From the NCBI GenBank assembly GCA_964035545.1, contig OZ037768.1:8712741-8776740 (forward strand): 64,000 nt of DNA, in the 5' to 3' direction. Shown here in pieces: positions 1 to 62,171 of the stretch (position 1 is its first letter; each line of letters begins with the position of its first letter). This stretch comes from Bugula neritina. Its lineage: Eukaryota; Animalia; Bryozoa. The position numbers and the translations under genes are program-made. The notes under the pieces were generated by a model. That model was not told the origin of the DNA and searched no databases. It saw only the letters and a list, made by a program, of their open reading frames with translations.

Positions 1-1
1 C

Positions 2-3000
2 GAGGGTGGCACGCTTGTGGGGGTCCGCGACGTGCGGCAGGATGAGGTCCCGGAACTCCGGAAATGTGGCCTGATCCACGGTGAACACGTGACCTGGGTG
101 GCAGCGCGAGATGCGCTGGTGGCGCAGCACATAATCCCGCTGGTAGGAGTATTCGCCGCAAGGGCAGAATACGTTGATGAAATGTTGTGGGGCGTGAACA
201 CGCAACCGCCGGGAGGAGGAGAATTTCCTCCGACATTGCCGGCAGATGCGGTTGCCCGCTGCCCCGCATGCTTCACTAATCTTCTGATTAGTGTCGCGAG
301 AGACCCAGGACTGGCGGGCGACCAGTGCCTGGGGTAGAGCCAAGGTGGGGGTGTCACCGTCTTCAGCTCGAGTAGAGGAGGGCACACCGCATAGTATTCC
401 CTGTTCCTCCCCGGCGGCTAATTGTAGCTCAACTGGGTTGGCGACAGGGTCACTATTCATGGTGGATAGCACCTCAGTCCGGTCTGTGGCGACCCGCGGG
501 CTGCAAGGAGCCGTCACGGGGGCTGGTGGAGGGGGGGAGTCGACTCGACTGACCTCCACCTCATCACACTCCATTGCAGTGTCTACAATAGACAGCAGAG
601 GCCGAGTAAGGCCGGTCTCGCCGTCGCCGAAATTCGGCATCGCCTTATAGGGTACTTTGTGGGTGGTAGGGAGCCGAGGTGAGTCATGGAGAGTGACTGA
701 CCCTATGTCCTGGTCTAATAAAAACTCATTTAGAGAGTCTTCTCCAAAACTCACATCGACTTCCTCCGTTAATAAATTAGATTCTAACAAATCTAAACTA
801 GCCCAATTAATTACAGTTGAGTCAGACTCCGGTACGGGAGGCTCTGACTCTAATGAAATACCTGTGTTTGTAGTGTTGTTACCGGGAAGAGTAATACCCA
901 TATCCAATTCGTGATTAATTCGATTACAAGTTTCAGCTTTAAAATTGCGTGTTACTAGTGGGTTAGTAGTAGTGCAAATGGCCGAGCCTCGTGTTTCAAT
1001 ATTTTTACCTGCTACGCGATCGTGGGGAATTCCCATCGAGTTTTGAAGGGACAACTCAGACAATCGCGTGCCCTCCGAATTTCGGTTTGCAACTGTTCCT
1101 TTTTGTAGTGATTCTCCAGGAGGTTGGAAGAATTTACTAACTAAGGAGGAGTAATGGCCCTGGACAGATGGATTCCCACTTGGGGGGGGCAACCCTAGGT
1201 GTCCTATGTGATAGTCTGCCAGATATCTGGGTGGTTTCCTCGCTCGCTGGCTCCTTTCCAGCGGTGTGGGTGCTGGTGGTGCCAGTTGCTCCTCAGTTGC
1301 CACCGTAGGGGGGTCCCCGCCTTCACCCGTAATACGGGTGGGGGTGTCCTCCCCCCAGAGGGGTGGTGGCTCTGGGGCGTGTTGCTGCTGCTGCTCCTGC
1401 CTCTGTTGTTGTTCCAACTGTTCTCGTAGGGCAGCCTGCTCCTGCTCTGCCTCCCTTCGGATGACAATTTCCACCTCCCGGGGCCGGGTGGCTCTCCCCC
1501 GCTGGTTAGGCTGGCGGTTGGGCTCCAGGAGGGGTGGAGCCTGACCCACCGCGTCTGGGCTGGCATGGTATGGTTTCAGGCGCTGTTCGCTCTGGACTGA
1601 GACCTGTCCAGAGCGCTCCACACGGTATGTGTGGTTGGCCAGCACCTCCACCACGCAGTAGGGACCCACGAACTTGGGCTGAAGTTTAGCCGACTGTCCG
1701 CGTCGCCTACGATAGCTCACCATCCAGACCCAGTCTCCCACCTGATACAATGGGGGCTCTTCTGAGTCCTCTGTGCGGATCTGCCACTGCTGGGCCCGCA
1801 GTGCATCATGGGCTTTACCCATGATCTCTGTCAGTCTTTCGACGTACTCATGTACCGGCGATTCGGGGGCGGGAACGTGGTATGTCAGGTGTTCCGGAAC
1901 CCGCGTTTCCCGGCCTAGCATCAGGAAGTTTGGGGTCTCCTGTGTGGTGGAGTGTGGTGTGCTGCGGTAAGCCCGCATGATTTGTGGCAGCACCACGTCC
2001 CATTCTTCCTGACCTCGACCAAGGAGCAGGCTCCTGAGGGCGTCACCCAACATCCTGTTGTTCCGCTCGACGACTCCGTTCCCTTGTGGGTGATATGGGG
2101 TGGTCCGACTCTGGTTCACCCCCCATATCCGGCAGAGGTCTCCCATGAGCTGGGACTGGAACTGGGCGCCCTGGTCCGTATGTATCTGCTCGGGCAAACC
2201 GAGGTAACAGAACACATGTTGGTCCAGGGTCCGGGCCACCGTGGGGGCAGTTGCGTCTGGGATAGCCAGAGCATCCGCCCACCGGGTAAAGTGGTCCGTG
2301 AGCACCAGTATCCAGGTGTTCCCTCTGGCGGATAACGGCATAGGCCCGACAAGGTCTACCGCCACTACTTGCCACGGTCGACCAGCGTACAGCCGGCGTC
2401 GACCAGTGGTTTCCGTGGGGCGGCCATGCTTGCTAGCTTGGCAGACCTCGCATTGCCGTACCCGCAGTCGTACGTCCCGAGTCATTCCGGGCCAATACCA
2501 ACGCAGCCGCAGACACCTGATGACCCGACTGACTCCAGAATGAGCCTGCTTATGGGTGTCCCAGATCAGTTCCCGTCGGAGGGCGCGTGGACAGACGACG
2601 CGGTCCCTCTCCTGCTGACGGTTGTCTGCTGCTAACGTTATCATCAGGAGGCCATCAGGACTGACCTTGAGGGCATCCCAGCGACGACAGAGGAGTTGGA
2701 ACTCAACGTCTCCCTGCCGCTGCTGTTCCTCGCTAGGTCGTCGGCCCTCCTTCTTGGCCCGGAAAATGTCCGCTACCGGGCCGGGTAGCGTCTCCTGGAG
2801 TCGGCACAGCTCCTTGACATTCTGGTACAGAGTGGGGTTGGCGTGAAGCGCCTGGACGTCGTCTGAGTGGGTTTCGGTCCGAAGATGGCCGTGCTCCCAC
2901 CGATAGACGGCGCCCTCCCCTAACTCTGTTTCCACGTCAAGGCGAGCGGGTCCCCCGTCCCGTTTTTCAATGTGCAGGCATTGCTTACAGTCCTCTACCG

Positions 3001-5614
3001 GCCGGCGGCTCATGCCGTCGGCGTTTCCGTGCTTCCGGCCAGCACGGTGTTCTATCCGGTAAGAGAACTCGGCAAGAATCTCTAGCCAACGAGCTACCTG
3101 GCTCGAGGGCTCCGCACGTTTACACAGCCATATCAGTGATGCATGGTCTGTTCGCAAACGGAACGTTCTCCCATACAGATATGGCCGAAAGTGCTTGACC
3201 GCCTTGACTACTGCTAGGAGTTCCTTCCTAGTGGTGCAGTAGTTCTTCTCGGCGGCCGCGAGAGTCTTGCTGTAGTAAGCCACGACCACCTCACTTCCAC
3301 CCTGGACTTGAGACAGGACAGCTCCCACGCTGTGGTCACTGGCGTCGGTGTCCAGGATGTACTCCTTGGCTGGATCAGGATACGCCAGAATTGGCGCCTC
3401 CATTAGCCGTTGCTTGAGGTGGTCGAATGCCTGCTGCTCCTCCTGCGTCCACTGCCACCGGACCCCTTTTGCGGTCAGCCGATTTAACGGCTGAGCCACT
3501 CCTGCGAAGCCAGGTATGTACTGCCGGTAGTACCCTACTAGGCCCAAGAATGCGCGCAACTCAGGGAGGTCACGGGGGACAGTCCACTGCTTCACAGCCT
3601 GTACCTTCTCTGGGTCGGTAGCGACCCCATCACGGCCCACCACATGGCCCAGGTACGTGACTTCCGGCTGCAAGAGTGCACACTTGGAGGGCTTCAGCTT
3701 GAGTCCAGCTGCCCGGAGGCGGTCAAAGACCTCCCGCAGACGACTGACATGAGTCGAAAAGTCTGGCGAGATGACAATGACGTCGTCCAGATAGATGAGG
3801 AGGGTCTTCCAGTGTAATCCACTGAGGACCTGCTCCATGAGCCGTTGGAAAGTTGCCGGGGCGGACGTTAGTCCAAATGGCAGTACTTTCCACTTCCAGA
3901 GCCCGTCGCGAGTAATGAATGCTGCTTTGTCCTGGGCATCAGGACTGAGAGGCACTTGCCAGTACCCGCTAAGCAGATCCAAAGTACTGAAGTACTTGCT
4001 ACCCGCGAGGGCATCCAGAGACTCATCTATCCGTGGGAGAGGGTAGGCGTCTTGGATGGTAACGCTGTTGAGTCTGCGGTAGTCCACACAGAACCTCCAG
4101 CTACCATCTTTCTTCTTGACCAGGACTACTGGAGAGCTCCACGCACCGTGGGCAGGCTCAATCAGATCCCGGTCGAGAAGATCCTGTACCTGTCGGCTCA
4201 CCTCCTTCTCCTTCTCCGGGCCTAGACGCCGGGTAGGCTGCCTGATGGGAGTGGTGCCGGCTGCCAGGGGTATCTCGTGGGAGATGACCTTGGTCAGCCC
4301 CATGTCTCTATCTCCACGACTGAAGACATCACTGTACTCCGCAAGTAGTTGAGCCAGTACTTGGCGTTCAGTACTACTTGTACAGTTTCCACACGCCCCA
4401 TCATACAGGTCAGCCATATGCTCCGGGACTGCTCCTCGTCTGGTGTGAGGGGGGTTCCCCTGGGTGTCGGCCACTGTCTCCAGTGCCGGACCCACATCCG
4501 CTTCCTGGATGGAGTGGTACTTCCCCACCAGCGCTCCAGCCGATAATCGGACAGGTTCCGTGAAGGGGTTGATGCACTGCACGAGGAGCTCCTGCCGACA
4601 ATCTAGCCGATTCAGGCTGTTTGCTAGTCGGATCGCTCCGTGCGTTCCCTCAACCACCCCCAGGCCGGCGATCCCCTTGCAGTTGACTCTGCAGCGAAGA
4701 GTCGCCTGGGATCTTCCCGGAACCGTGCAGTCCCGCACTACCTGGACTCCGCCCACCAAGGGCCTTCCGAACTTGTCGACGCAGACAAGCTCCTTCCCAG
4801 CCATCACCACCACTGACTTCTGGAAATCCATGTGACACTGGTGTTTCTCCAGAAACGGCATTCCCAGGATGGCGTCCTCCTTCAGCTGGCTGACTATGAA
4901 CGTCTCGTGAATTGCTTGATCACGGACGCGTCCAGGTAGTGAAATGACGCCGTAGAAAGGAATGCATGATCCGTCCGCCAACGTACCATGCGCACCTTCA
5001 TACGGCTCGAGGCTCGCCCGCTCTCGTGCACCAAGAGTGTCAAAGAGACGCCTACTCAGCAGGTTGGTAGTGCACCCAGTATCCAGTAGGAATGTGGCAG
5101 CTTTACCCGAAATCTTTCCGGGCAGAAAGTAGCTGCTTCCATACGGCTGGGCGCTCCTGGAGCGGTCAGTCTCTGGGGGAGACACAACTTGGGTCCGCAC
5201 AGCGGGCCTCCTCTTTGTCTTAGAGACAACGGGGGTTTTCTGAGGTCGGGAGGGTAGCTTGGGGTACTCTTGCGAGTAAGCTGAATCCTCCTCCACAACC
5301 TCCTCGGGCAACCCCGCGAACCGGTTCTGGAGTGGCCAGGCCGGAGGATCGGGTAGACCTTGCGGTCTCCGAGATCTCCGAGGTGCCTGCCATCCTGCTT
5401 CTTCTAGCTGCATCCGGGTCTCGAGTGACACGGCCGGAGGATCGGGTAGACCTTGCGGTCTCCGAGGTCTCCGTGGCCTCTGCCACTCGGTATCGGCAGA
5501 CCCTGTGGAGGTCTCTTCTTCTCCTCTTCGAGTCCTATCCCGGATGGGATTGGCGTGAGGCCCACGGTTGGCGGAAGTTACCGTGAGCCTTGGGTGTTTA
5601 AAGGCCCTTGGCCT
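2..5614 (-). CDS. pol: Pol polyprotein (protease, RT, RNase H, integrase) with a long C-terminal zinc-finger extension; open past the window edge; probably expressed by -1 frameshift from gag
   Basis: Hand translation finds no stop between the TAG at 5617-5615 and position 2 (1871 codons). Motifs: FLLDTGC (5083-5075), WRFCVDYRRLN, LPFGLTSAPATFQR, YLDD (3793-3782), ILDTDAS, TDHASL, NADGMSR, HHCC (H..H..CEVC), VDLVGP / HTDQG / NGVVER (DDE), GPY (1666-1658), RSQRARKPPRYLADY (1255-1211). Confidence 0.93.
5339..5473. repeat. Two 42-bp direct repeats (5339-5380 and 5432-5473, one mismatch, 93-bp offset) upstream of the protease
   Basis: ggccggaggatcgggtagaccttgcggtctccgag(a/g)tctccg occurs twice; it is in frame and encodes RR(P/S)RRPQGLPDPPA twice in pol. 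Confidence 0.9.
5558..5602 (-). promoter_or_regulatory. -1 programmed ribosomal frameshift signal: U_UUA_AAC slippery heptamer plus 11-bp hairpin
   Basis: Minus strand reads CCT TTA AAC in the gag frame (heptamer 5602-5596). After a 5-nt spacer, AGGCUCACGGU (5590-5580) pairs with ACCGUGGGCCU (5568-5558; one G-U). Pol is in the -1 frame and overlaps the gag end. Confidence 0.88.
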
Positions 5615-6483
5615 CTAGGGCAGTGCCTCCTCACATGCCCTTGCACCCCGCACCCCCAACAGGTTAGTAGAGATGGGCGGACAGGGTTGTCCCGTGAACG
5701 GGGAGCCCGCCTATCCGCCTGTTCGCTCTGCAACTTCGTCACTGTAGCCTGCAGGCCTTTCATCATGTCCATTAACATGGTGAGCTGCGTCTGCTCGAGT
5801 GATTTAGTTGCTGCGGCCGCTACTTGGGGTTTAGCAGGCAGGGCGGTCTCCTCATCGACCACCTGGCGGGCGGCGAATCTTGGTCCTTGAAGCTCTTCTA
5901 CCTGGAAATAGGCTTTACCCGTTTCCAGAGCTTCGTCCAGGCTGCCCACCTTGCCAGCCATCCAATAGCGTTGGAGGTCAGGATGATTTATACTCCGGAA
6001 AAACGCGTTGTACACCAGGCGCTGTCTTTCCGTTCCGGTAGCCTGGCTGAAAGCAGCCTGGGCCAAGCGTTCCACCACGTTGGCGTGGTCCTCCAATGAT
6101 GTCCTCCTGTCCCTTCTCAGGGCCTGTAGGCGGTCAGACGCCTCCTCTGACGTCATGCCAAACCTGGCCCTTAGGGCACGTAAGATGTGTGCTTCATCGG
6201 GCCCCAGAGCGAAACTCTTGGCCCGGCCTGTCAAACAGGCCCGGAGTTGGAGGACGCGCACCGGCACTGGCCATTCAGCGATGGTGGCCACGTCCTGGAA
6301 CTCCCGGATGAATTGCTCCACATCCCCATCACCTCCAAAAGTTGGGGGACTGAGGCGGTACCTGTCACCAGGTGGCGCCTGCCCTGTCCCCTGCAACTTT
6401 CGGAGGGCTGTCACCAAAGCCTCCACAGTGAGGGTTGGTGTCGCGGCTGCTCCAGGGGTTGCCTCCTCACCCCCTGGAGCCAT
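5578..6483 (-). CDS. gag: Gag protein, 301 aa, with C-terminal CCHC zinc knuckle
   Basis: ORF track; PPTFGGDGDVEQFIREF / LRACLTGRA capsid-like region; CWGCGVQGHVRRHC = CX2CX4HX4C; starts just downstream of the PBS. Confidence 0.95.
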   Translation of the reverse strand: MAPGGEEATPGAAATPTLTVEALVTALRKLQGTGQAPPGDRYRLSPPTFGGDGDVEQFIREFQDVATIAEWPVPVRVLQLRACLTGRAKSFALGPDEAHILRALRARFGMTSEEASDRLQALRRDRRTSLEDHANVVERLAQAAFSQATGTERQRLVYNAFFRSINHPDLQRYWMAGKVGSLDEALETGKAYFQVEELQGPRFAARQVVDEETALPAKPQVAAAATKSLEQTQLTMLMDMMKGLQATVTKLQSEQADRRAPRSRDNPVRPSLLTCWGCGVQGHVRRHCPRGQGPLNTQGSR

Positions 6484-6510
6484 CTTGTTCTTCTTACACT
6501 AGTATTCAGA

Positions 6511-6528
6511 ATCCCACTGCTGCCACCA
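6511..6528 (-). promoter_or_regulatory. Primer-binding site, complementary to a tRNA-Leu-type 3' end
   Basis: Minus strand TGGTGGCAGCAGTGGGAT begins 1 nt after the LTR-terminal CA; plus strand ATCCCACTGCTGCCACCA resembles the 3' 18 nt of metazoan tRNA-Leu including CCA (from memory). Confidence 0.85.
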
Positions 6529-6529
6529 A

Positions 6530-6878
6530 TGTGATAAACTTGTGGGTTGAATGTAACTTAGTGCAGAACAAGATAGGTTGAAGTAGTAGAGTTCCAAATG
6601 TTTATTATAGTATAAAAATAATGTCAACTTGTCTAGGCGAGCTCCAGTAGTAGACTGGCTTAACACCGTAACTCGCCTGCTTTTATATACAGCGAACAAA
6701 AGAACATAAAACAAAGAATCTTTTGTGTGTGTGGCCCGAAGTTCGGTAGCTCCGAAATTCGGCAGGCCCGAAGATCGGGGGAACCGATCTTCGGTCAAGC
6801 CGAAACTCGGAACTCCGAATTTCGGACCCCAATTAACATTATTGAACAAAAGAACAAACCAAGGCATAATCTATCACA
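6530..6878 (-). repeat. 5' LTR, 349 bp
   Basis: Terminal inverted repeats TGTGATA...TATCACA; abuts the PBS; minus-strand TATATAAAA at 6689-6681 and AATAAA at 6606-6601. The partner LTR and TSD cannot be checked in this window. Confidence 0.88.
6736..6825. repeat. Array of six CCGA-N3-TCGG palindromes in the LTR U3
   Basis: Copies start at 6736, 6752, 6768, 6784, 6800 and 6815 (period 16,16,16,16,15); arms are invariant while centres and spacers differ. Confidence 0.95.
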
Positions 6879-9810: not shown

Positions 9811-10530
9811 AGTTTAAAACCTATTATCGATTTTAACTGTTTAATAACAACGCATAAAAATTACAAGCAATTTTAATCAACAATCACATTAAGATCAATT
9901 TGTTGAACTTCATTGTCATTGTGATTGTGACTCACATCAAGTTCAACTAGCCCGATTTATTCAGTGGGATTTATTTATGAAAACAAATGAGTTAGTAGGA
10001 CTCGTTTATTACAACCTGTGATTACATGTAATAACAATATACTGCCAATGGATAGTGATACCACGTGTCCTATTAACTCTTTTACACACCCCTTCTGCTC
10101 TAAGGCTAATATAGAGTAGTTAGAAGACTGCTTGACGTAGCACAAGGTTTGAGGTTATTGAGTGCCGTACGTTAAGCTCTCAAGTTTAGGGTTGGGTATT
10201 TGGAGTTCAGACAATATTGAATAAAGCACTCAGTGGCCCCGAACTTTGTTTTGCATCTAGTGATTTTTAGCAGTGGGTAGGGAAGTGCGAAATTACAATA
10301 ATAATTATAATAATTTAGTTTTTTTTCTATATTATATAAACTATTATATAGTCACTATCCCCGTGAAAATAAAATTTGAAAATGATTGTGAAAGTGTTAT
10401 CATTTTCGTTGTTCAATATAAATATGGATATTTATATTGAATACGATATTAAATTTAATATTCATATTCATATTGATATTTGAAATTCATATTCATAATT
10501 CTGAATTCATATTGATATTGTAATTGCAGC

Positions 10531-10800
10531 TTGCTATTACTATTACTATTAGAGTATTACTACTACTAGTACTATTACTATTAGTATTCGTGTGGTGTGC
10601 TCTAGTTCTATGACTACGTCTACAGTACTAGTACTAGTACTAGTAGAACTAGAACTAGTACAGTACTTGTAGTAAAATAAGAATACTTATTTATTTATTA
10701 TTAGTTATTACTATTACTATTAGTATTAGTAATAGTATTACTATACTTAAAGTTAATCTTATAGTTATTACAGTTACTTTTGGTTATTACTTATCACTAT
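10531..10800. repeat. Degenerate (TATTAC/TACTAG)n low-complexity tract
   Basis: Visible directly, e.g. gctattactattactattag and agtactagtactagtactagt. Confidence 0.8.
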
Positions 10801-20159: not shown

Positions 20160-22876
20160 ATGGCGTCAAATAGCGGTGTTGGAGATGGTGCTCAAGTAGA
20201 TTTCCAAATGGAAGAAAGGAATCGGGTAGGAAATCTTTATTCACAGTTTAAATCTATGCATGAAAATTATGCTTCAAATCAACAATATTTAGTTGGCTTG
20301 CTGTATTTCTTTAATTATAAATTTTCAGTCATTTAGTTTAAATATTTGAGCAATACCCATATTATTTAAACTTCTCCTATTAGTTATTGGTTTGATTAAA
20401 TTTTTAATAATTTAGTTGAGTTTACTCTTGCTCTTACATGTTAACAAACAAATAATATTTTTAGCAAGCATTAGAAAATGATTTTTTATATTGTGTTTTC
20501 ATCTTGACACAAAACCTGACATGCAGTTTTAACAATTATAACTTTAGAGCAAACAAGTGCAAGCTCAATTACTGTATTTTGTTGTAGGAAGCCGGCCAGT
20601 CATCGAATAGCTTTGAAGACTCGAATGAGCTGCCGAATAAAATCGAACAGCAACTCAGATGCTGGAAAATTTTTGCTATTGTTTTTATTGTTTTATCAGC
20701 TTTATTGTTATTGGCTGTTTTATTAGTTGTCTTTATCAAAACACCGCTGCAAAGTCAAGGACTCTTTTCGGGTTTAACCCCTCAGGAAGCTGACCAAATT
20801 ATAAAGTTTATGTTGAATCAAAAAGAACTTAAACTGAAACGGTCATTTAAAGCACAACTTGATGACAATTATATTTACTCAATTGATGATGAGCTTCCTC
20901 CCAAATCAGAGGTGCTGCAATGGCTAGATGGCAGTAATCAGACAACCCCAGAACGTAGAGCAAGAGTGCTTCTTTTTATGGGAGAAACTCAAACTATTGA
21001 GGAATACATAGTATCACCAGTTCCCAATCCTCAAATCAAAACAAAACGACCCAATGAAAAGCTTACTTGGAAAGCACGGCCTCTTTGTGAAGTGGTAGAG
21101 CTTCAGATATTAAGGACATTTATTATTGATCAACTTGAAACGATATCGGATATATATTTTGACAGTTTTTCTAATGGGTGCACCCAAATTTCAGATTGCT
21201 TTTATATGAATACTGCCCCGAGAGCTGTCATTGGCTCGCCAGATCGCTTTATTTTAGTATGGCTTTTTATTGACCCTTCTATAATAAGTGACTACTATCT
21301 TTATTCTCTTCCCTTTTACTTAATAATAAAAACTCCTGCCAAAAGCGTTAATTTTGAGATTGAAGAGATTTATTACAACGGAATAAAATTTGATTCTCTA
21401 AACCAATTAAAAAATGAATATTCAGTAAATCAGAGTATTCGCTATCAAGTTCCTGACTGGCGTAGTCAAAGCAATAGTTATGGTTCTCCCGAAAGAATTT
21501 TCTTAGAAGACACTATTGATCAACATCGGAGACCACCTTTACAGGTTCAGCCTGACTGCTCTAGAGTTGAAGTTACTGGTTCAGCTGTGAAATGGCTGGG
21601 TTGGTCCTTTAATATCCACTCTCATATTTTGTCAGGTGTGCAATTGTTTGATGTTCGATATAAAAGTGAAAAAATTGCCTATGAACTAAGCATGCAAGAC
21701 ACGTTTGTTTTATATTCGGGTGGACCACCAGATGATTATTTCAAAAACTTTTTTGATAATGGCTATAGCATTGGGAGACTTACCACACCACTTGTTAGAG
21801 GAGTTGATTGCCCTATTGATGCTTTTTATATAAATAGCAATACCTACCAAGCTGGTAGTGACTATGCTACTTATCACACAGATTCAATATGTGTGTTTGA
21901 ACATAGAAATTCTGTGCCACTGCACAGACATTATTCCTCTTTATTCGGAAATTTTCGATACGGGTTTAGCATGCCTGACTCTGTACTCATTGTTCGACAA
22001 ATCATTACCGTTTGGAACTATGATTATATTTTCGACTATGTATTTCACCAAAGTGGCTTGATAGAACTAAAAGTTTCATCCACTGGCTATGTAGCTGTTA
22101 CTAATTATCTTGATGGCTCTACTATCAAACATGGTTACATAATTAATGATCACTGGATGGCTACTGCTAATTTACATCAACATATATTTAATTTCAAACT
22201 GGACCTTGATATTAAGGGAACAAAAAACAACTTTAAAACTATAAACTTGAAATCAGAAGAGTTTCCAGCAAATAACTTTTCTGGAGGCAACCCTTGGCCA
22301 CAAATGGTAATGGAAGAGTTTCTGGTTAAGAATGAGCATGATGCTGCTATCCGCTACAGTTTTGACAAACCAAAGTTCTATGTAGTGTATGATAACACAC
22401 TTAATCGATCTGGATATAGGATTCTTTCTAATCATTTTCATAATACTGCTTTGCCAGACTCTTCACCATTGCTTATGGGTGGGGCATCGTGGGTTAAATA
22501 TCAACTTGCAGTCACCAAATTTAAAGAAAGCGAAAGAACCACCATTTCTGAATTTGTTCAAGGAGATCCATTCAATCCAGCAGTAAAATTTGATGATTTC
22601 ATTGCTGACAATGACACATTGGAAAGTGAAGATCTTGTTGCCTGGGTTACTGTTGGGTTACACCATATACCAACGTATGAAGATCTTCCAGTTACTACTA
22701 CTCCTGGGAAAACATTATCAGTAATTTTGGCTCCTTTTAATTTCTTCGAGAAAGATCCTGCAATACATTCCAGAGATGCTGCTGTGTTTTTTCACGAACT
22801 CACAAATATTACTGATAGCTACCTGCATCTCGATAACACTTGCACAGTTCCTAATGAAAAGCCTTCGGTTTATTAA
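20160..22876 (+). CDS. Copper-containing (TPQ) amine oxidase, AOC1/AOC3-like, type II membrane; copy 1, ~784 aa
   Basis: Exon 20160-20225 (22 codons) plus exon 20588-22876. N-terminal TM helix; FFDNGY (catalytic Asp), TVWNYDY (TPQ consensus N-Y-D), HQH and GLHHIP copper ligands. Confidence 0.93.
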
Positions 22877-27353: not shown

Positions 27354-30010
27354 ATGTCTTCTGAGAAATATGTGGATGACCCGGGTCAGGAGTCTCATCC
27401 TATGAGTGAGAAAGCTGAGGTTAGTTTCTAAGCTTTTGCTGCTTTTAGTGTTACAGAACTTTTACTTTATATTTTCTCATTTTGGATTTTTTAAACTAAA
27501 CTTTGGATAGTCTTGAGTGGTCTACCACGTATTTATATTATTGAAAAAATGTTTAACAATATGTTTTTCTTTATATAAATGAGAAAATATGACAATTATA
27601 CTTTTAGGGTAGAGAAACGTCAATCTATAGAAATAATGAATCGTCTCAGAAACGAGCCAGACAACTGAGATGTTGGAAGATTACCACCATAATATTCATT
27701 GTAATTTCTATTATATTACTAGTGTCTGTGATTGTCTTGGCCACAGTATTCAAGGGTGGTAGTGCTAGCGTAGCAAATCCTAGCACAGGTGCTGTTAGAG
27801 TAGATCCAAATGCAGATAAAATGAAAAGAGCATGCGCTAGTAGTAGAAAAATTACCGATCAAAAGTTACTGCAAAGTGAAAAACTGTTTGGTGGTATTAC
27901 TCCTGATGAGTCTAGCGCAGTCATTGAGTATATGCTACAGCAAAGCTCATTACGGTTGAAGAGGTCCAATATGTCTAAACTTGATGATAACTATATCTTT
28001 TCAATTGAAGACGTTCTGCCATCTAAATCAGATGTCCTCAAATGGTTGGATGGAACAACTCAACTTGTCCCAGAAAGAAAAGCAAGAGTAGTGCTGTTCA
28101 TGGGAGAAACTCGCACCATTAGAGAGTACTTGGTTTCACCAGTGCCCAATCCCCAACGACATGAAGAGTTGCTTGCTAACAAATTATCCTGGCAAGCTCG
28201 GCCAGTGTGTAATACCGTCGAACACCCCTTGGTGTCAAAGTATATTGTTGAACAACTTGAGGCAATTGCAGATGTTTTTCTACCTAGCTTCGCCAAAGAT
28301 TGTTCAAAAGTAGCAGACTGTGTTTACATGAATGTGGCTCCAAGAGCAGCCATAGATTCTACTGACCGTCATGTCATAGCTTGGTTTTTTATTTCTCCTT
28401 TTAAAATGATCGATTATTATTTGTATGCACTTCCATTTTATATCGTTATTAGAACTCCATCCAACAGCGTCAACTTTGAAATAGCAAAAGTGTATTATAA
28501 TGGTCGTACATTTAATTCACTCGCTGATTTAAAAGATGAGTATCATAAAAACTCTAACATACGTTACAAACATCCTAATCTAGATGCTAAGGGTTTGGGA
28601 TTCGGTTCACCTCAGCGTGTGTTGCTAGACGATACCATTGACCAGAAGCGGAGGCCTCCTGTTCAGTATCATCCGGACGGTCCCAGAATGGCGGTCAGCG
28701 GTTCAGCTGTAGAATGGCTTGGGTGGTCATTTAACATTCACCCTCGTACTGTGACCGGTATACAGCTATTCAATGTTCAGTATAAAAAGGAGAGAATTGC
28801 TTATGAATTAAGTATGCAAGATATTTTGGTTCTTTACTCTGGCGGTGCTCCTGATGATTACTTTAAAAGTTATTTTGATAATGGGTGGAGTATTGGTGCT
28901 GCGAGCACACCACTAGTGAGAGGTGTTGATTGTCCACAAGATGCTGTTTACATGAATAGTAACACTTACAGTGTCGGCGAAGACCAAGGTGTTTCAATAA
29001 ACGACTCAATATGCATATTTGAACATCGAAACTCTATTCCATTACACAGACATTACTCTTCTTCTTTCCTTGATGGCTCATATCGATATGCATTTAGTAT
29101 GCCTGACTCTGTGCTTATTGTTAGACAAATACTTACTCTGTGGAACTACGATTATATTTTTGATTATGAGTTTCATCAAAATGGTGCAATAGAGCTGAAA
29201 GTTTCTTCCACCGGATATGTAGCAGTTACCACTAACTTAGATGGGTCTACTATTAGTCACGGCTATGTCATAAATGATGGCTGGAAAGCTACAGCAAATT
29301 TGCATCAACACATTTTTAATTTCCGTCTTGATCTTGATATTGATGGAATCAACAATAATTTCAAAACAATTGATATTTCAAAGACAACACCAACAAAGCA
29401 TGACTTTTCTGGAGCTAAAACCTGGTCACAGATAATTATGCAGGAATCAGTGATTGACAATGAGCAAGATGCTGCTATTCGTTATGACTTTTCTCGTCCT
29501 AAACTTTATGTTATGTATGATGACAAAACGTCTAAACAGCGTGGATATAGAATTCAGAGCAACAACTTTCATAATCCTGTTTTGTCAGACTCATCACCAT
29601 TGCTGGCAGGCGGAGCTTCATGGACCAAATACCAACTTGCCGTTACCAAGTTTAATGAAAGTGAAACAACCACAGCGTCAGCATTTGTACAAGGTGATCC
29701 ATTTAACCCAGCAATCAATTTTGACGATTTTATAGAAAACAATGACAAGTTAACAAACGAGGATCTTGTTGCGTGGGTTACTGTTGGTTTGCATCACATA
29801 CCAACATATGAAGACTTGCCAGTAACCACTACTCCTGGTAAAACGCTGTCTGTAGTTTTGGCACCATTCAACTACTTTGAACGAGACCCTGCAATACATT
29901 CCAGAGATGCTGCTGTGTTTTGGCATGAAGTGATACAAAAGCCTGATGGTATTCTTTACCGAAATGATACTTGCTTAGTGCCCAATGTCAAGCCTTCAGT
30001 CTACCCATAA
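27354..30010 (+). CDS. Copper-containing (TPQ) amine oxidase, type II membrane; copy 2, ~822 aa
   Basis: Exon 27354-27419 (22 codons) plus exon 27608-30010. TM helix, YFDNGW, TLWNYDY, HQH, GLHHIP; clear paralog of copy 1. Confidence 0.93.
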
Positions 30011-44709: not shown

Positions 44710-45547
44710 TCTCCAACTCAATCTTTAATTATAAGTTTTAATCAAAACTATTATAACAGCAACTGTAATAATTTTTGTTACCAAATAGTACTAACGTATA
44801 AATATTTCTAAAAAATCAATGTTAACATAAACCTAAATTAATCATTGATAATGTAATAACTGTAACTAAAATTAATCGTTAATGCAGAGTTTCAAGCTGG
44901 AATTGCAAAATTCAAACCAAAAACGTGATAAAACTAAAACTCAAGGTTAATCTAAATTACACTTGATTTTTTATTAGTTTAAATCATGACAGTAACACTA
45001 ACTCCAGTAATGAGTAATGTAAAACCAATCATACAATATTGAATATTTACTTCAGACCTCAACACCAAAGCAACATCAACAGCTACTAAACAACTTACTA
45101 CTTTAACTTATGCTTATAATCTATGCATAATGGTAATATTTACTGCTCACTTGTGGTTACTTACTCTAAATACCTTCAGCAATTGCAAGTTCCAGTAGTA
45201 AAATTAAATTTATGCTAGACTTAGAATTTGATGCATATTAAGCTTACATTCAAACTAAAAGCAAAAGCTAAAGACTAATTCTAATAGTTAATCTAAGACT
45301 CGGGATAGAATAGGAATACCTATGACTATGAGGTTAAGTCTAACTTCGAGTTGAAGACTTTGAGCAGATCTTTAAATTAGTCAAAGACATGAGTCTATCA
45401 TGATATAGTTAGATCAAATCACAAGAGTCAGACCTAGACTTACTTTTGCTGTTTTAGAGTCAGTGTATCACATAATCTTAATTTTGTAACTTATCATCAA
45501 AACAATCAAGTTAAAACTAAATTGAATTTTTATTTCAATTTAAAACA

Positions 45548-46640
45548 ATTACTGCTACAGCAACTATTACTACTGCTATTATTACTGCTATTACTACTGC
45601 TACTACTACTACTACTGCTACTACTACTGCTACTACTACTGCTACTACAGCTAGTACTACTACTACTACTACTGCTACTACTGCTACTACTACTACAGCT
45701 ACTACTACTAGTACTATCTGTATTAGGACTACTAATACTAATAGTACTTGTACTACTACTAACAGTAATATTACAGCAATGCTATTAGTATTAGTCACTG
45801 ACTATTAGTATTACTAATACTAATAGTGATACTATTAGTAATACTAATAGCTTTAGTATTACTATTAGTATTAGCATATTAAATTTCATATTGATAATAA
45901 TGTTACTTATAGTTATACTTTAGTGATTTACTCATACTGTTAGAATTTGTATTTGTATTAGAGTTTAGACTATTACTAACAGTAACACTAACACAGTAAC
46001 AATATGAATATGAATATTAATAACAATTAAAATCAATTTTTAAATACATTTAGTTTTACACAGCACTGTCAGTAGCACTAACAGTTTAACAGTAACTGTA
46101 AGACAAAGTGTAACAGTAGCACAGCGTTAATTTACTTAAATTTAATGTTAATGTTATAGTTACTGTTATAATATTACTGAAAGTTATCATTATGATTTAG
46201 ATTATGCCTATACTTAAATGCTTGCACTGGACTAATACTAATAGTAATAGTAATACCAATAGAATAGTAATTACTAATACAAATAGTAATAGACTAATAC
46301 CAAATCCAATACTTATACTAATACAGTAATAGTAATACTAATAGTAATAGTAATAATAATACTTAATCATATTCATATTGATATTCTAATTCATAATGAT
46401 AATCTTATAGTTATACTGTAACTGTAAGACTAAGAGTAAGTGTAATACTAATAGTAATAATAATACTAATAGTAATAGTAATACTAATACTAAGTCTAAT
46501 ACTAATAGTAATAGTACTAGTAGTACTAATACTAATAGTAATACTAATACTAATAGTAATACTAATAGAGTAATACTAATAGTAATAGTAATAGTAATAG
46601 TAATAGCATTGCCATTAGGGCATTACTATTAGTATTACTA
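45548..46640. repeat. (TAC/TGC)n microsatellite and degenerate (TAATAG/TAATAC)n tracts upstream of the AACS ATG
   Basis: Visible directly at ~45548-45870 and ~46230-46640; these generate the spurious poly-Leu/poly-Val ORFs. Confidence 0.9.
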
Positions 46641-49014
46641 TTAGGCTCAGCTATACCTATACTACCATAAATCACTCAAGTAGTTCAAGTTTTGATTAAG
46701 GTTTTGTCAATAAACAACAAAAAGAAAGTATAACAAAACCCTGTGGTTATGCTGACTTCTATTACCAGCATTAATTATTAAAATTTTTATTTTGAAATTT
46801 GCAGCATGACAAGAATTAGAAAACATTTTCTGTTTTGTCTGCGTTCCAACAGGCTATTGGGGTATCCCCACAGTATCTCTTCTTACACAAAGGTGATAGA
46901 GGCTAACATACCACGCTGGTGTATTTAAAATCTGCGACGATTGGTCGATGAGAATAAGACCACATTTGCATCCATCGGACCACGATGGTTGGTGTAAGAG
47001 TGAATAACTCTGTGTTTCGCAGCGAATAGCTATTACAAATCAATTACTAATTAATAATAATAGTATTATATTAATATTATACAATCTTGGTGGCAAGCAA
47101 AGATTATTGCATTAAATATTTACATATTATATTCAAAAGTTTATAGTCAGAAAAGCTCAACAGAGTTTAAATAGAATGAGTTTCAAGCTACATGCACACC
47201 TTAAAAACTAGATTCCCAAATTGTATGCCTCTTTGACTCAAAGTGAGGAAACACATCACATTATACAAAAGAAATTTTCAGAAAAATTTCTAGCAAGGAT
47301 ATTAAGGTGTATGTAGTGGAAGACAACTGCTAATAAAATATAAAATTATTATGAAGTTTCATAAAACACTTAAGTAAAACAATATCTTTTTATCAACAAG
47401 TCATATACAGGCATTTGAACGTGTAATAATTGAAAAATATACAATTACTTCTACATAATATTATGTAAGATATCATTAATTAAAGAAGGTTAGCAGCTTC
47501 ATGACTTTTATGTAGCACTCATATATTTAATTTTAGTTTCTTTATTTTAAAGTTACATGGCTCTTTGACAACTTGGAATAAATCTAAGGAAAATTTCTTA
47601 AAATAATAATATGATGATGACTTTAAAGAGTTTTTAAACAAGTTTATTTATTACTTATTGCTCATTTCCCTTTCTATTATAGGAAATTTTATGTGGCAAA
47701 CACTAATCAAATTTATTACATATTGATTATTCACATTTTTTTTATAAAGAAGCATTTTTTACATTGACGCAATTTATTGACATTTAATATCAAAGCTAAC
47801 TGTAATTTTTTTGTCACTATCTAAATAATAATATATAGCAAATACTTATACTTTATATAAATATGCATTAATTAATATACCTGAACTTGTGGAATTGACT
47901 GTTTAAAAAGGCAGATTATTTAAAAAACCATATTAGGCATAATTTTCATTTAATAATTGTAGCATTCTGTTCAATTATTTCAACAGCATGCAGTGCTTTT
48001 CTGATATGATGCAGGTTCTATAGGCCTACTGTAGGAGTTTACTGCATTGCACAACCAAATGTTTCATATATAATATTATCATATGGTTATTCTATATATC
48101 TTGCAGTAATAATCTATAATATTTAATAATACATAATTATGTTTACCTTGAAACAATAATATATTTTATGATATATAATATTATATACCAATTACAATAA
48201 TATGTCTAATCATATAGATTATGCTTTCATTGTTTATGTATTTGCAACACACTTACACTGTGCAAAACTTTAGGACATTGCTAAAAATTAAAATACATAT
48301 TATATATAAGTTATAATAAATATGATGTACATTTTTTATGGCTGCCACTAGTATTCATTTATAATTATGTTACCCATATGAGAGATGGCTTATTGATAAT
48401 ATGGCAAACAACTTTTTATAACTCTAAAAAAATGCATAATATTGTGTTTGGTTTTGCATGATATAAGTGTAGTTACTTTGATGAAGGCTTCTTATTTCTA
48501 TTCAGAGTCAATTTGATAATTGATTAAAGATTTCAGATGTTATCTGTAACGGTAAGCAAGGCTTAGGGCAAATCAGTATGGTACATTTTAAAATCATTGA
48601 TTATTGAAAAGACTTTTACAGACTTTCAAAGGCCACGATGCGTAGTTTATTATACTAATCAGCCATACAGCTATTTATTATAACATTAACTAGAATGTGC
48701 ATAACCAATATTTATTGCCAATTCATTTTTACATTATAAGCTAACCACTCTCAGAAAAATAACTATAACTGAAAAAGTAAAAAAAAGATATAGTAATAGT
48801 GGAGATAGAAAGCATAAATCATAAATAATTAATGAAGTGAAAAGCTTAAATAAATCTTAGTTTATCCTAAGTCAAATACATGTAAATACTCAATCACATA
48901 CAAAATGGGTAAATTTCATTTTGAAAATTAAATTTTGCTATGCAACTATCATATTATATACAATACAATAACATGAACAGCGCTTCAAGTAATAAATAAC
49001 AATAATTTAAACAT

Positions 49015-62171
<13,157 letters not shown>

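Follow-up and report, generated by a model that had tools for sequence, protein, structure and literature searches.

Can a Ty3/Gypsy retrotransposon encode the factor that controls its own transcription? Complex retroviruses characteristically encode DNA-binding transactivators of their own, while Gypsy elements are generally held to rely on host factors. The question arises at one end of the 64-kb stretch of DNA analysed here (the window), where the original prediction joined two features of a single element into a self-transactivation circuit: zinc fingers with an acidic, activator-like segment at the end of Pol, and a multimerised palindrome in U3.

The element is a Ty3/Gypsy retrotransposon that occupies positions 1-6878 on the minus strand, its left side being cut off by the window edge, and has a GC content of 57-59% compared with about 32% in the host DNA. 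From right to left it consists of a 349-bp LTR, a primer binding site that we take to be of the tRNA-Leu type, gag, a UUUAAAC heptamer with a hairpin, and pol (Table 1). The gag and pol frames are both open, and the Pfam domains of pol (protease, RT, RNase H, integrase and an SH3-like domain) follow the Gypsy order. The core of the element is an ordinary Ty3/Gypsy. Judged from its sequence, the heptamer, presumably a slippery site, is likely to form a -1 gag-pol frameshift site together with the hairpin. No chromodomain was found after the integrase among the 11 Pfam families matching with E up to 1, and no env was seen in the part of the element within the window. The pol frame (2-5614, 1871 codons) stays open up to the window edge; this truncation adds to the original prediction, as relatives run on into a coiled coil. 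A basic P-x-x-L-x-D-Y-type motif, similar to one that ends Pol in many relatives, is followed in the window by about 400 further codons. A contig from an RNA run is identical to positions 1-1313 with a depth of 745 against 110 in the flank, which hints at several young copies, though depth is not copy number and the window may itself derive from this run.

The DNA beyond the element includes, on the plus strand, tandem copper amine oxidase genes (20588-22876 and 27608-30010), each a single long frame, which lie about 7.1 kb apart and share blocks that are 70-76% alike. On the minus strand an exon with C2H2 finger pairs (49015-50010) is presumably Spalt/SALL-like. Judged from the genes around the element, the host is an animal. 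Degenerate TAC/TAA/TAG trinucleotide-type repeats are found at 10500-10790 and 45540-46660, the second with long imperfect inverted arms (45780-45880 with 46430-46600).

Table 1. Features of the element, in window positions.
Feature	Position	Strand	Basis and remarks
5' LTR, 349 bp, TG...CA ends	6530..6878	-	Sequence; 3' LTR lies outside the window
U3 array, six CCGA-N3-TCGG palindromes	6736..6825	.	Sequence and shuffles
TATA box TATATAAAA in LTR	6689-6681	-	Sequence
AATAAA in LTR	6606-6601	-	Sequence
Primer binding site	6509..6528	-	Sequence; same word 3' of the LTR in several relatives
Two candidate splice-donor-like words	6466..6497	-	Pattern scan; in the leader (6497) and shortly past the gag ATG (6471)
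gag ORF with zinc knuckle	5578..6483	-	ORF; zf-CCHC weak, E 0.4
UUUAAAC heptamer, hairpin downstream	5596..5602	-	Sequence; fold z -3.2, 1/200 shuffles
pol proper, ending in R-x-R-K-P-P-x-Y-L-x-D-Y-type motif (1240-1211)	1211..5614	-	Pfam
Internal palindrome, between protease and RT	4540..4550	.	Pattern match
Internal palindrome copy A, starts AT-rich stretch	1075..1085	.	Pattern match
Upstream candidate ATG (long form with acidic segment)	899..901	-	Met in 15/15 aligned rows
Donor-like CAG|GTATTT, in phase with acceptor 583	856..864	-	Suggested by sequence
Acidic, hydrophobic segment, activation-domain-like	701..850	-	Composition rule; FLLDQD core conserved in relatives
Internal palindrome copy B, in frame as P-N-F-G	627..637	.	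Pattern match
Splice-acceptor-like site, AG at 584-583; conserved ATG 574-572, 8 nt on	572..600	-	Acceptor score, codon signature
Two-finger module, runs off the window	2..307	-	Leading helix, finger 1, finger 2, closing strand and helices
Finger 1, Cys/His cluster	244-182	-	Sequence
Finger 2, Cys/His cluster, atypical CxC...H type	166-98	-	Sequence

The predicted zinc fingers are present as two Cys/His clusters, but the second is atypical and the pair scores 16 bits against Pfam zf-C2H2_4, below the cut-off of 27; the relative P0163 lies narrowly above it at 27.7. Finger 1 has a weak match to the fingers of SALL (E 0.001). Using the last 133 codons as query, 15 proteins were found at 61-83% identity, and a profile built from 11 of these close relatives detected the module in 269 cluster representatives. 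This profile, which had been built without them, also detected the module in 30 of 120 Pol relatives (E up to 0.0013), and a profile that included them did so in 32. Pol residues 1700-1871, used as a query against long proteins, had given no match, which reflects a limit of sensitivity since the module was later common there. A fold prediction built on 77 sequences was confident over 120 residues, the AlphaFold model of the relative P0001 having pLDDT values above 90 for residues 81-200. Residues 101-158 of this model overlay the DNA-bound finger pairs of ZNF217 and Kaiso, a weak match (Z 3.8, rmsd 2.7 over 51-57 residues). Foldseek against the PDB gave E values above 1, neither the PDB nor the viral sets contained a match at E 0.001, and the matches of a wide VIA fold search were filled by the coiled coil; none of the sequence and fold searches run gave a significant likeness to the whole domain. 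As modelled, and with this weak Z score, the module would be a conserved, folded two-finger unit with its fingers in tandem as in DNA-bound structures. In 8 of the 15 close relatives it is followed by a C-terminal heptad helix, also modelled with pLDDT above 90, while the others end or diverge earlier; this helix is of the dimerisation type and suits a palindrome. The module is apparently a clade-wide two-finger domain, so far uncatalogued, whose members are divergent and number in the hundreds. We found no published description of it or of a Gypsy-encoded DNA-binding transactivator, though supplements and repeat-database reports may describe the domain; the word 'zinc' is absent from the main text, as far as available, of PMC13524379 and PMC8556966.

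The multimerised palindrome was borne out. The 11-letter word CCGANNNTCGG (CCGA-N3-TCGG) occurs nine times in the 64-kb window against 0.08 expected, a count reached by none of 100 shuffles. Six copies, starting at 6736, 6752, 6768, 6784, 6800 and 6815 with a period of 16, 16, 16, 16 and 15, form an array that stands 46 nt upstream of the TATA box and so lies in U3. All nine sites fall within the element, and the 57,122 host bases have none even if one mismatch is allowed. When spacers of 0-11 were scanned in the element, N3 alone was present. The three internal palindromes (627, 1075 and 4540), which the original prediction had not included, compare with 0.12 expected, and none of 2000 shuffles reached three; copies A and B in the tail have the strict CCGAA-N-TTCGG form (0/2000 shuffles). 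In relatives, 24 of 31 aligned rows have P[NK][FI]G at site B, with changes at the spacer positions (N/K, F/I) and the half-sites mostly kept, and site A reads R-N-S in three of the five rows that cover it, the window counted. The P-N-F-G at site B may be a protein motif, because the adjacent P-Y-K is kept more deeply. That this P-Y-K encodes a TATA box was considered and rejected, L030 having a TAC codon there.

Several similar patterns were seen in passing. At the start of pol there is a 72-nt direct repeat (5321-5392 and 5414-5485, 86%), each copy containing a near-palindrome one position off the array word. A 36-nt island at 977-1012 is kept in diverged relatives in four of four RNA runs, with differing flanks; its minus strand starts with CAG-G and it has a one-mismatch palindrome copy at 982. 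The triple-palindrome pattern also picked out 25 loci in viral contigs, which were set aside as unrelated, showing no similarity to gag, pol or the tail. These phage-like contigs carry tandem CCGA-N3-TCGG, mostly with a 15-16 bp period, presumably resembling replication-origin iterons inside initiator genes.

If the fingers read the array, the two would be expected to change together among relatives. Finger-based scans of metagenome and viral contigs gave no locus and an RT-IN scan of viral contigs none; an integrase scan gave three weak matches in viral contigs and, from the best 80 of 192 confirmed metagenome loci and 18 genome loci, the 98 loci compared here (L029-L126). The last 18 of these (L109-L126) are Gypsy-like integrase genes in bacterial metagenome-assembled genomes, probably from host contamination. 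CCGA-N3-TCGG is absent from all 98 of these more distant loci. The expectation that families should have fingers and array together was borne out in part: finger-less L062 (one family) has no palindromic U3 array, but neither have five finger-bearing loci (L036, L037, L053, L061 and L066) whose LTR sequence reaches a TATA-like word. L062 does have an over-represented 5-mer, mostly downstream of the TATA box, so multimers alone prove little.

Of 11 LTR stretches compared, two of them only about 115 nt long, those of the window and of L039 alone are enriched for CCGA; in L039 it occurs 12 times in the LTR stretch against 3.85 expected (0/500), and the locus ranks first of 70 for CCGA enrichment. 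The longer word CCGAC occurs there 67 times against 13.8 expected over 7.8 kb, split 53 to 14 between the strands, in genes and LTR alike. Among the seven type-A loci with LTR data (the layout of the window, see below), only the window and L039 carry R, D and R at positions +1, +2 and +6 of the finger-2 helix, so that these residues go with CCGA enrichment in 2/2 against 0/5 (Fisher p 0.048, chosen post hoc); the two lie on different tree branches. L030, whose finger helices are unlike those of the window yet which belongs to the same 7-row group, has 12 CCAAC words above its TATA box (0/500), including one perfect 5+1+5 palindrome; we take this word to resemble a MYB site. Site B is present in three of the four proteins that have window-like helices and enough upstream sequence, and in none of 36 others, a comparison confounded by kinship. 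When codon shuffling was used to look for words interwoven with the RT-IN coding sequence, 20 intact loci out of 23 gave no more signal than outgroups, L039, L056 and L060 being left out for their broken frames. The co-variation of recognition helices and LTR motif that the prediction called for is only suggestive, L039 and L030 speaking in its favour.

The array could instead be an enhancer for a host factor of the DEAF1/SAND type that reads unmethylated TTCG half-sites, the job of the finger protein being unrelated, a possibility that we consider unlikely. In the part of the report available, DEAF1 binds paired TTCG(G) half-sites with CpGs 6-11 nt apart, a spacing of 7 being bound weakest, and its consensus is a repeated TTCGGG and not a fixed-spacer palindrome (PMC4274154). 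The LTR contains 10 TTCG words with CpG gaps of 6-7 between adjacent palindromes, and the five finger-bearing relatives without an array also fit a host factor. So do words in L066 and in the spacers of L084 and L031 that we take to be CCAAT- and AP-1-like. The CpG gap within each palindrome is 5, however, outside the range tested for DEAF1 in the available part of PMC4274154, and the array has a fixed spacer. A host factor would also leave the L039 pattern and the activator-like ORFs unexplained.

The array may also be viewed as RNA. As a whole it folds into one hairpin of about 100 nt (-68.6 kcal/mol, z -9.6), and a Rev/Rex/CERV-like finger protein that binds this U3 hairpin, or the internal copies, could export or protect unspliced genomic RNA. 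There is precedent for such a factor in a Gypsy element, the CERV of Cer1, in the portion of the paper available (PMC10309623). Few permutations of the array's parts fold as well, 33, 11 and 4 of 1000 in the comparisons made, and the internal palindromes fall in the predicted intron. Much of the hairpin follows from having six palindromes in a row, which fold whatever their order (permuted mean -60.7); since the real order nevertheless beats 967 of 1000 permutations, 33 folding as well, the array may have arisen by inverted duplication or been selected for its structure. Against this reading, the internal copies show no folding (z -0.6 and 0.0), the TATA box follows the array directly, and acidic activator-like segments would be unexpected in an export factor. 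We regard an RNA role as decidedly unlikely.

The fingers had been described as the end of Pol. The tail is indeed in frame with pol, but comparison of the loci and of codon patterns suggests that it is probably not a Pol domain and is instead an accessory gene with an mRNA of its own, either spliced or started internally. Integrase and fingers are separated by a stop in 8 of the 16 finger-bearing loci (the window counted, some being decayed copies), and fusion to Pol is therefore dispensable; L035, L037, L048 and L063 have one common split layout with an AT-rich spacer. On a quick integrase tree of 135 rows the fused and short-Pol forms are interleaved, though short proteins may be truncated. 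In L030, L033 and L061 a purine tract and LTR-like DNA come close behind the finger ORF, a region before which the window ends.

The fused frame itself contains the splice-acceptor-like site, whose AG is within the top 0.5% of RT-IN AG sites by a home-made acceptor score. Its codon signature (YAG) is kept in 27 of 30 rows though both codons vary widely. Among 85 variable column pairs only one other exceeded 0.57, the pair at 884 (13 of 14 rows), where the window itself is not readable as an acceptor. The ATG just beyond is Met in 24 of 31 rows, and acceptor-plus-ATG junctions of a similar kind are visible in L034, L036, L053 and L061. The full conservation of the ATG at 901 is biased because gene callers start proteins at Met. 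The RNA runs yielded no splice joint in 31 contigs over 1-1450, all of them less than 95% alike and with thin cover of the tail, and contigs cannot prove its absence. We infer splicing, rather than observe it, because the acceptor score is home-made and these contigs have no joint. The accessory, transcription-factor-like coding region is real and clade-wide.

Fingers that remain on the integrase could tether integration or organise the LTR ends, like the chromodomains of chromoviruses, and the module is in frame with integrase both in the window and in the 30 Pol relatives. The stops ahead of the module, the interleaving of fused and short forms and the conserved acceptor signature inside the fused frame argue against this reading, which we hold to be very improbable.

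The acidic, activator-like segment was picked out by what we take to be the composition rule for acidic activation domains, which marks windows in 9 of 16 finger ORFs and in none of 16 RT-IN controls. This part of the original prediction holds as to composition, but the best acceptor would exclude the segment. As that acceptor lies downstream of it, the simplest product has no acidic segment, and a product that keeps it must start at 901, be a fusion to Pol or use another junction. By its sequence the donor-like word at 862 could define an intron ending at acceptor 583, which would excise the segment; since the two are in phase, one transcript could, as speculation, yield both forms. In L034, L037 and L048 the best acceptor precedes an acidic stretch. 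Two layouts are found. In type A, that of the window, an acidic stretch is followed by the fingers and a coiled coil. In type B, whose members group as a single branch on the quick 135-row tree (SH-aLRT 98%), the fingers come first and are followed by a long acidic tail. The modules of both types are homologous (hhalign probability 96%).

Type-B accessory ORFs lie 3' of integrase in L038, L047, L049, L052, L066 and L084. Their acidic tails end in aromatic and leucine-rich patches, and several of the loci have CCAAT-like words in the spacer ahead of the ORF. Two Pol relatives with PF00692, presumably a dUTPase, P0102 and P0125, group with type-B elements.

That the finger protein binds its site but solely represses, braking copy number, or shields the CpG-rich array from silencing would be consistent with a best acceptor giving a finger and coiled-coil protein without the acidic segment and with the undepleted CpG of the LTR (observed/expected 1.08 against 0.39 in host DNA), but is the least probable of these alternatives, the acidic segment being conserved and in frame here and lying downstream of the best acceptor in L034, L037 and L048.

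The reading that we prefer is a self-regulator akin to foamy virus Tas, an accessory finger protein, predicted to dimerise, that would bind the palindrome copies of the LTR and of the element's interior and thereby regulate the element's transcription; we judge the case for and against it to be evenly balanced. In this mechanism the two-finger product would be made separately from Pol, from a spliced or internally started mRNA, as the acceptor signature and the split ORFs of relatives suggest. The C-terminal helix of relatives, which lies outside the window, would allow it to dimerise, and the likeness in fold would point to DNA binding. Its match to the palindrome, both in U3 and next to the stretch that encodes it, would rest on the weak co-variation. 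Once bound it would regulate, and probably activate, transcription of the element. Most speculatively, a long form from the ATG at 901 that keeps the acidic segment would activate, and a short form made through acceptor 583 without it could dampen, giving an on/off loop. A broader reading, possible but doubtful, is that a clade of animal Ty3/Gypsy elements has 'complex' regulation independent of retroviruses, with family-specific finger transcription factors that co-evolve with private LTR words (CCGAA here, CCGAC in L039 and CCAAC in L030) and with spliced activator and brake forms. If true, nature would have supplied in this clade a whole collection of proteins matched to their sites, the transactivator strategy would have arisen outside retroviruses, and an element could set its own window of expression. 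Should the circuit not exist, the module would still be an apparently uncatalogued domain found in two transcription-factor-like layouts.

Among known systems, the chromoviruses are simple Ty3/Gypsy elements with C-terminal add-ons to integrase. The element resembles them in having an additional domain in frame after integrase, but it has no chromodomain and its add-on is separable from Pol and transcription-factor-like. With the tandem C2H2 pairs of ZNF217 and Kaiso/ZBTB33 the module has the weak overlay noted above, and with SALL the weak match of finger 1; it differs in the CxC-type finger 2, in an extra helix before and a strand and helices after the fingers, and in scores below the Pfam cut-offs. 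The CERV of Cer1 in C. elegans is, in the available part of PMC10309623, made from a spliced mRNA; it has a potential leucine zipper and cysteine finger, and is needed for export and not for transcription. It differs in this RNA role, in being confined to nematodes and in its other predicted domains, and the same part of that paper mentions no palindrome array in the Cer1 LTR (PMC10309623). The module showed no significant match to predicted viral structures. The Tas (Bel1) of foamy viruses, as far as the available text of PMC9143442 describes it, is an activator that comes from a spliced mRNA and whose DNA targets are found in the LTR and at an internal site. Here the setting is a Ty3/Gypsy element in which no env was seen, the two-finger module is often in frame with Pol, and binding is a prediction. 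The likeness lies in a probable accessory gene 3' of the core genes, and in internal palindromes that echo the layout of an LTR and an internal site.
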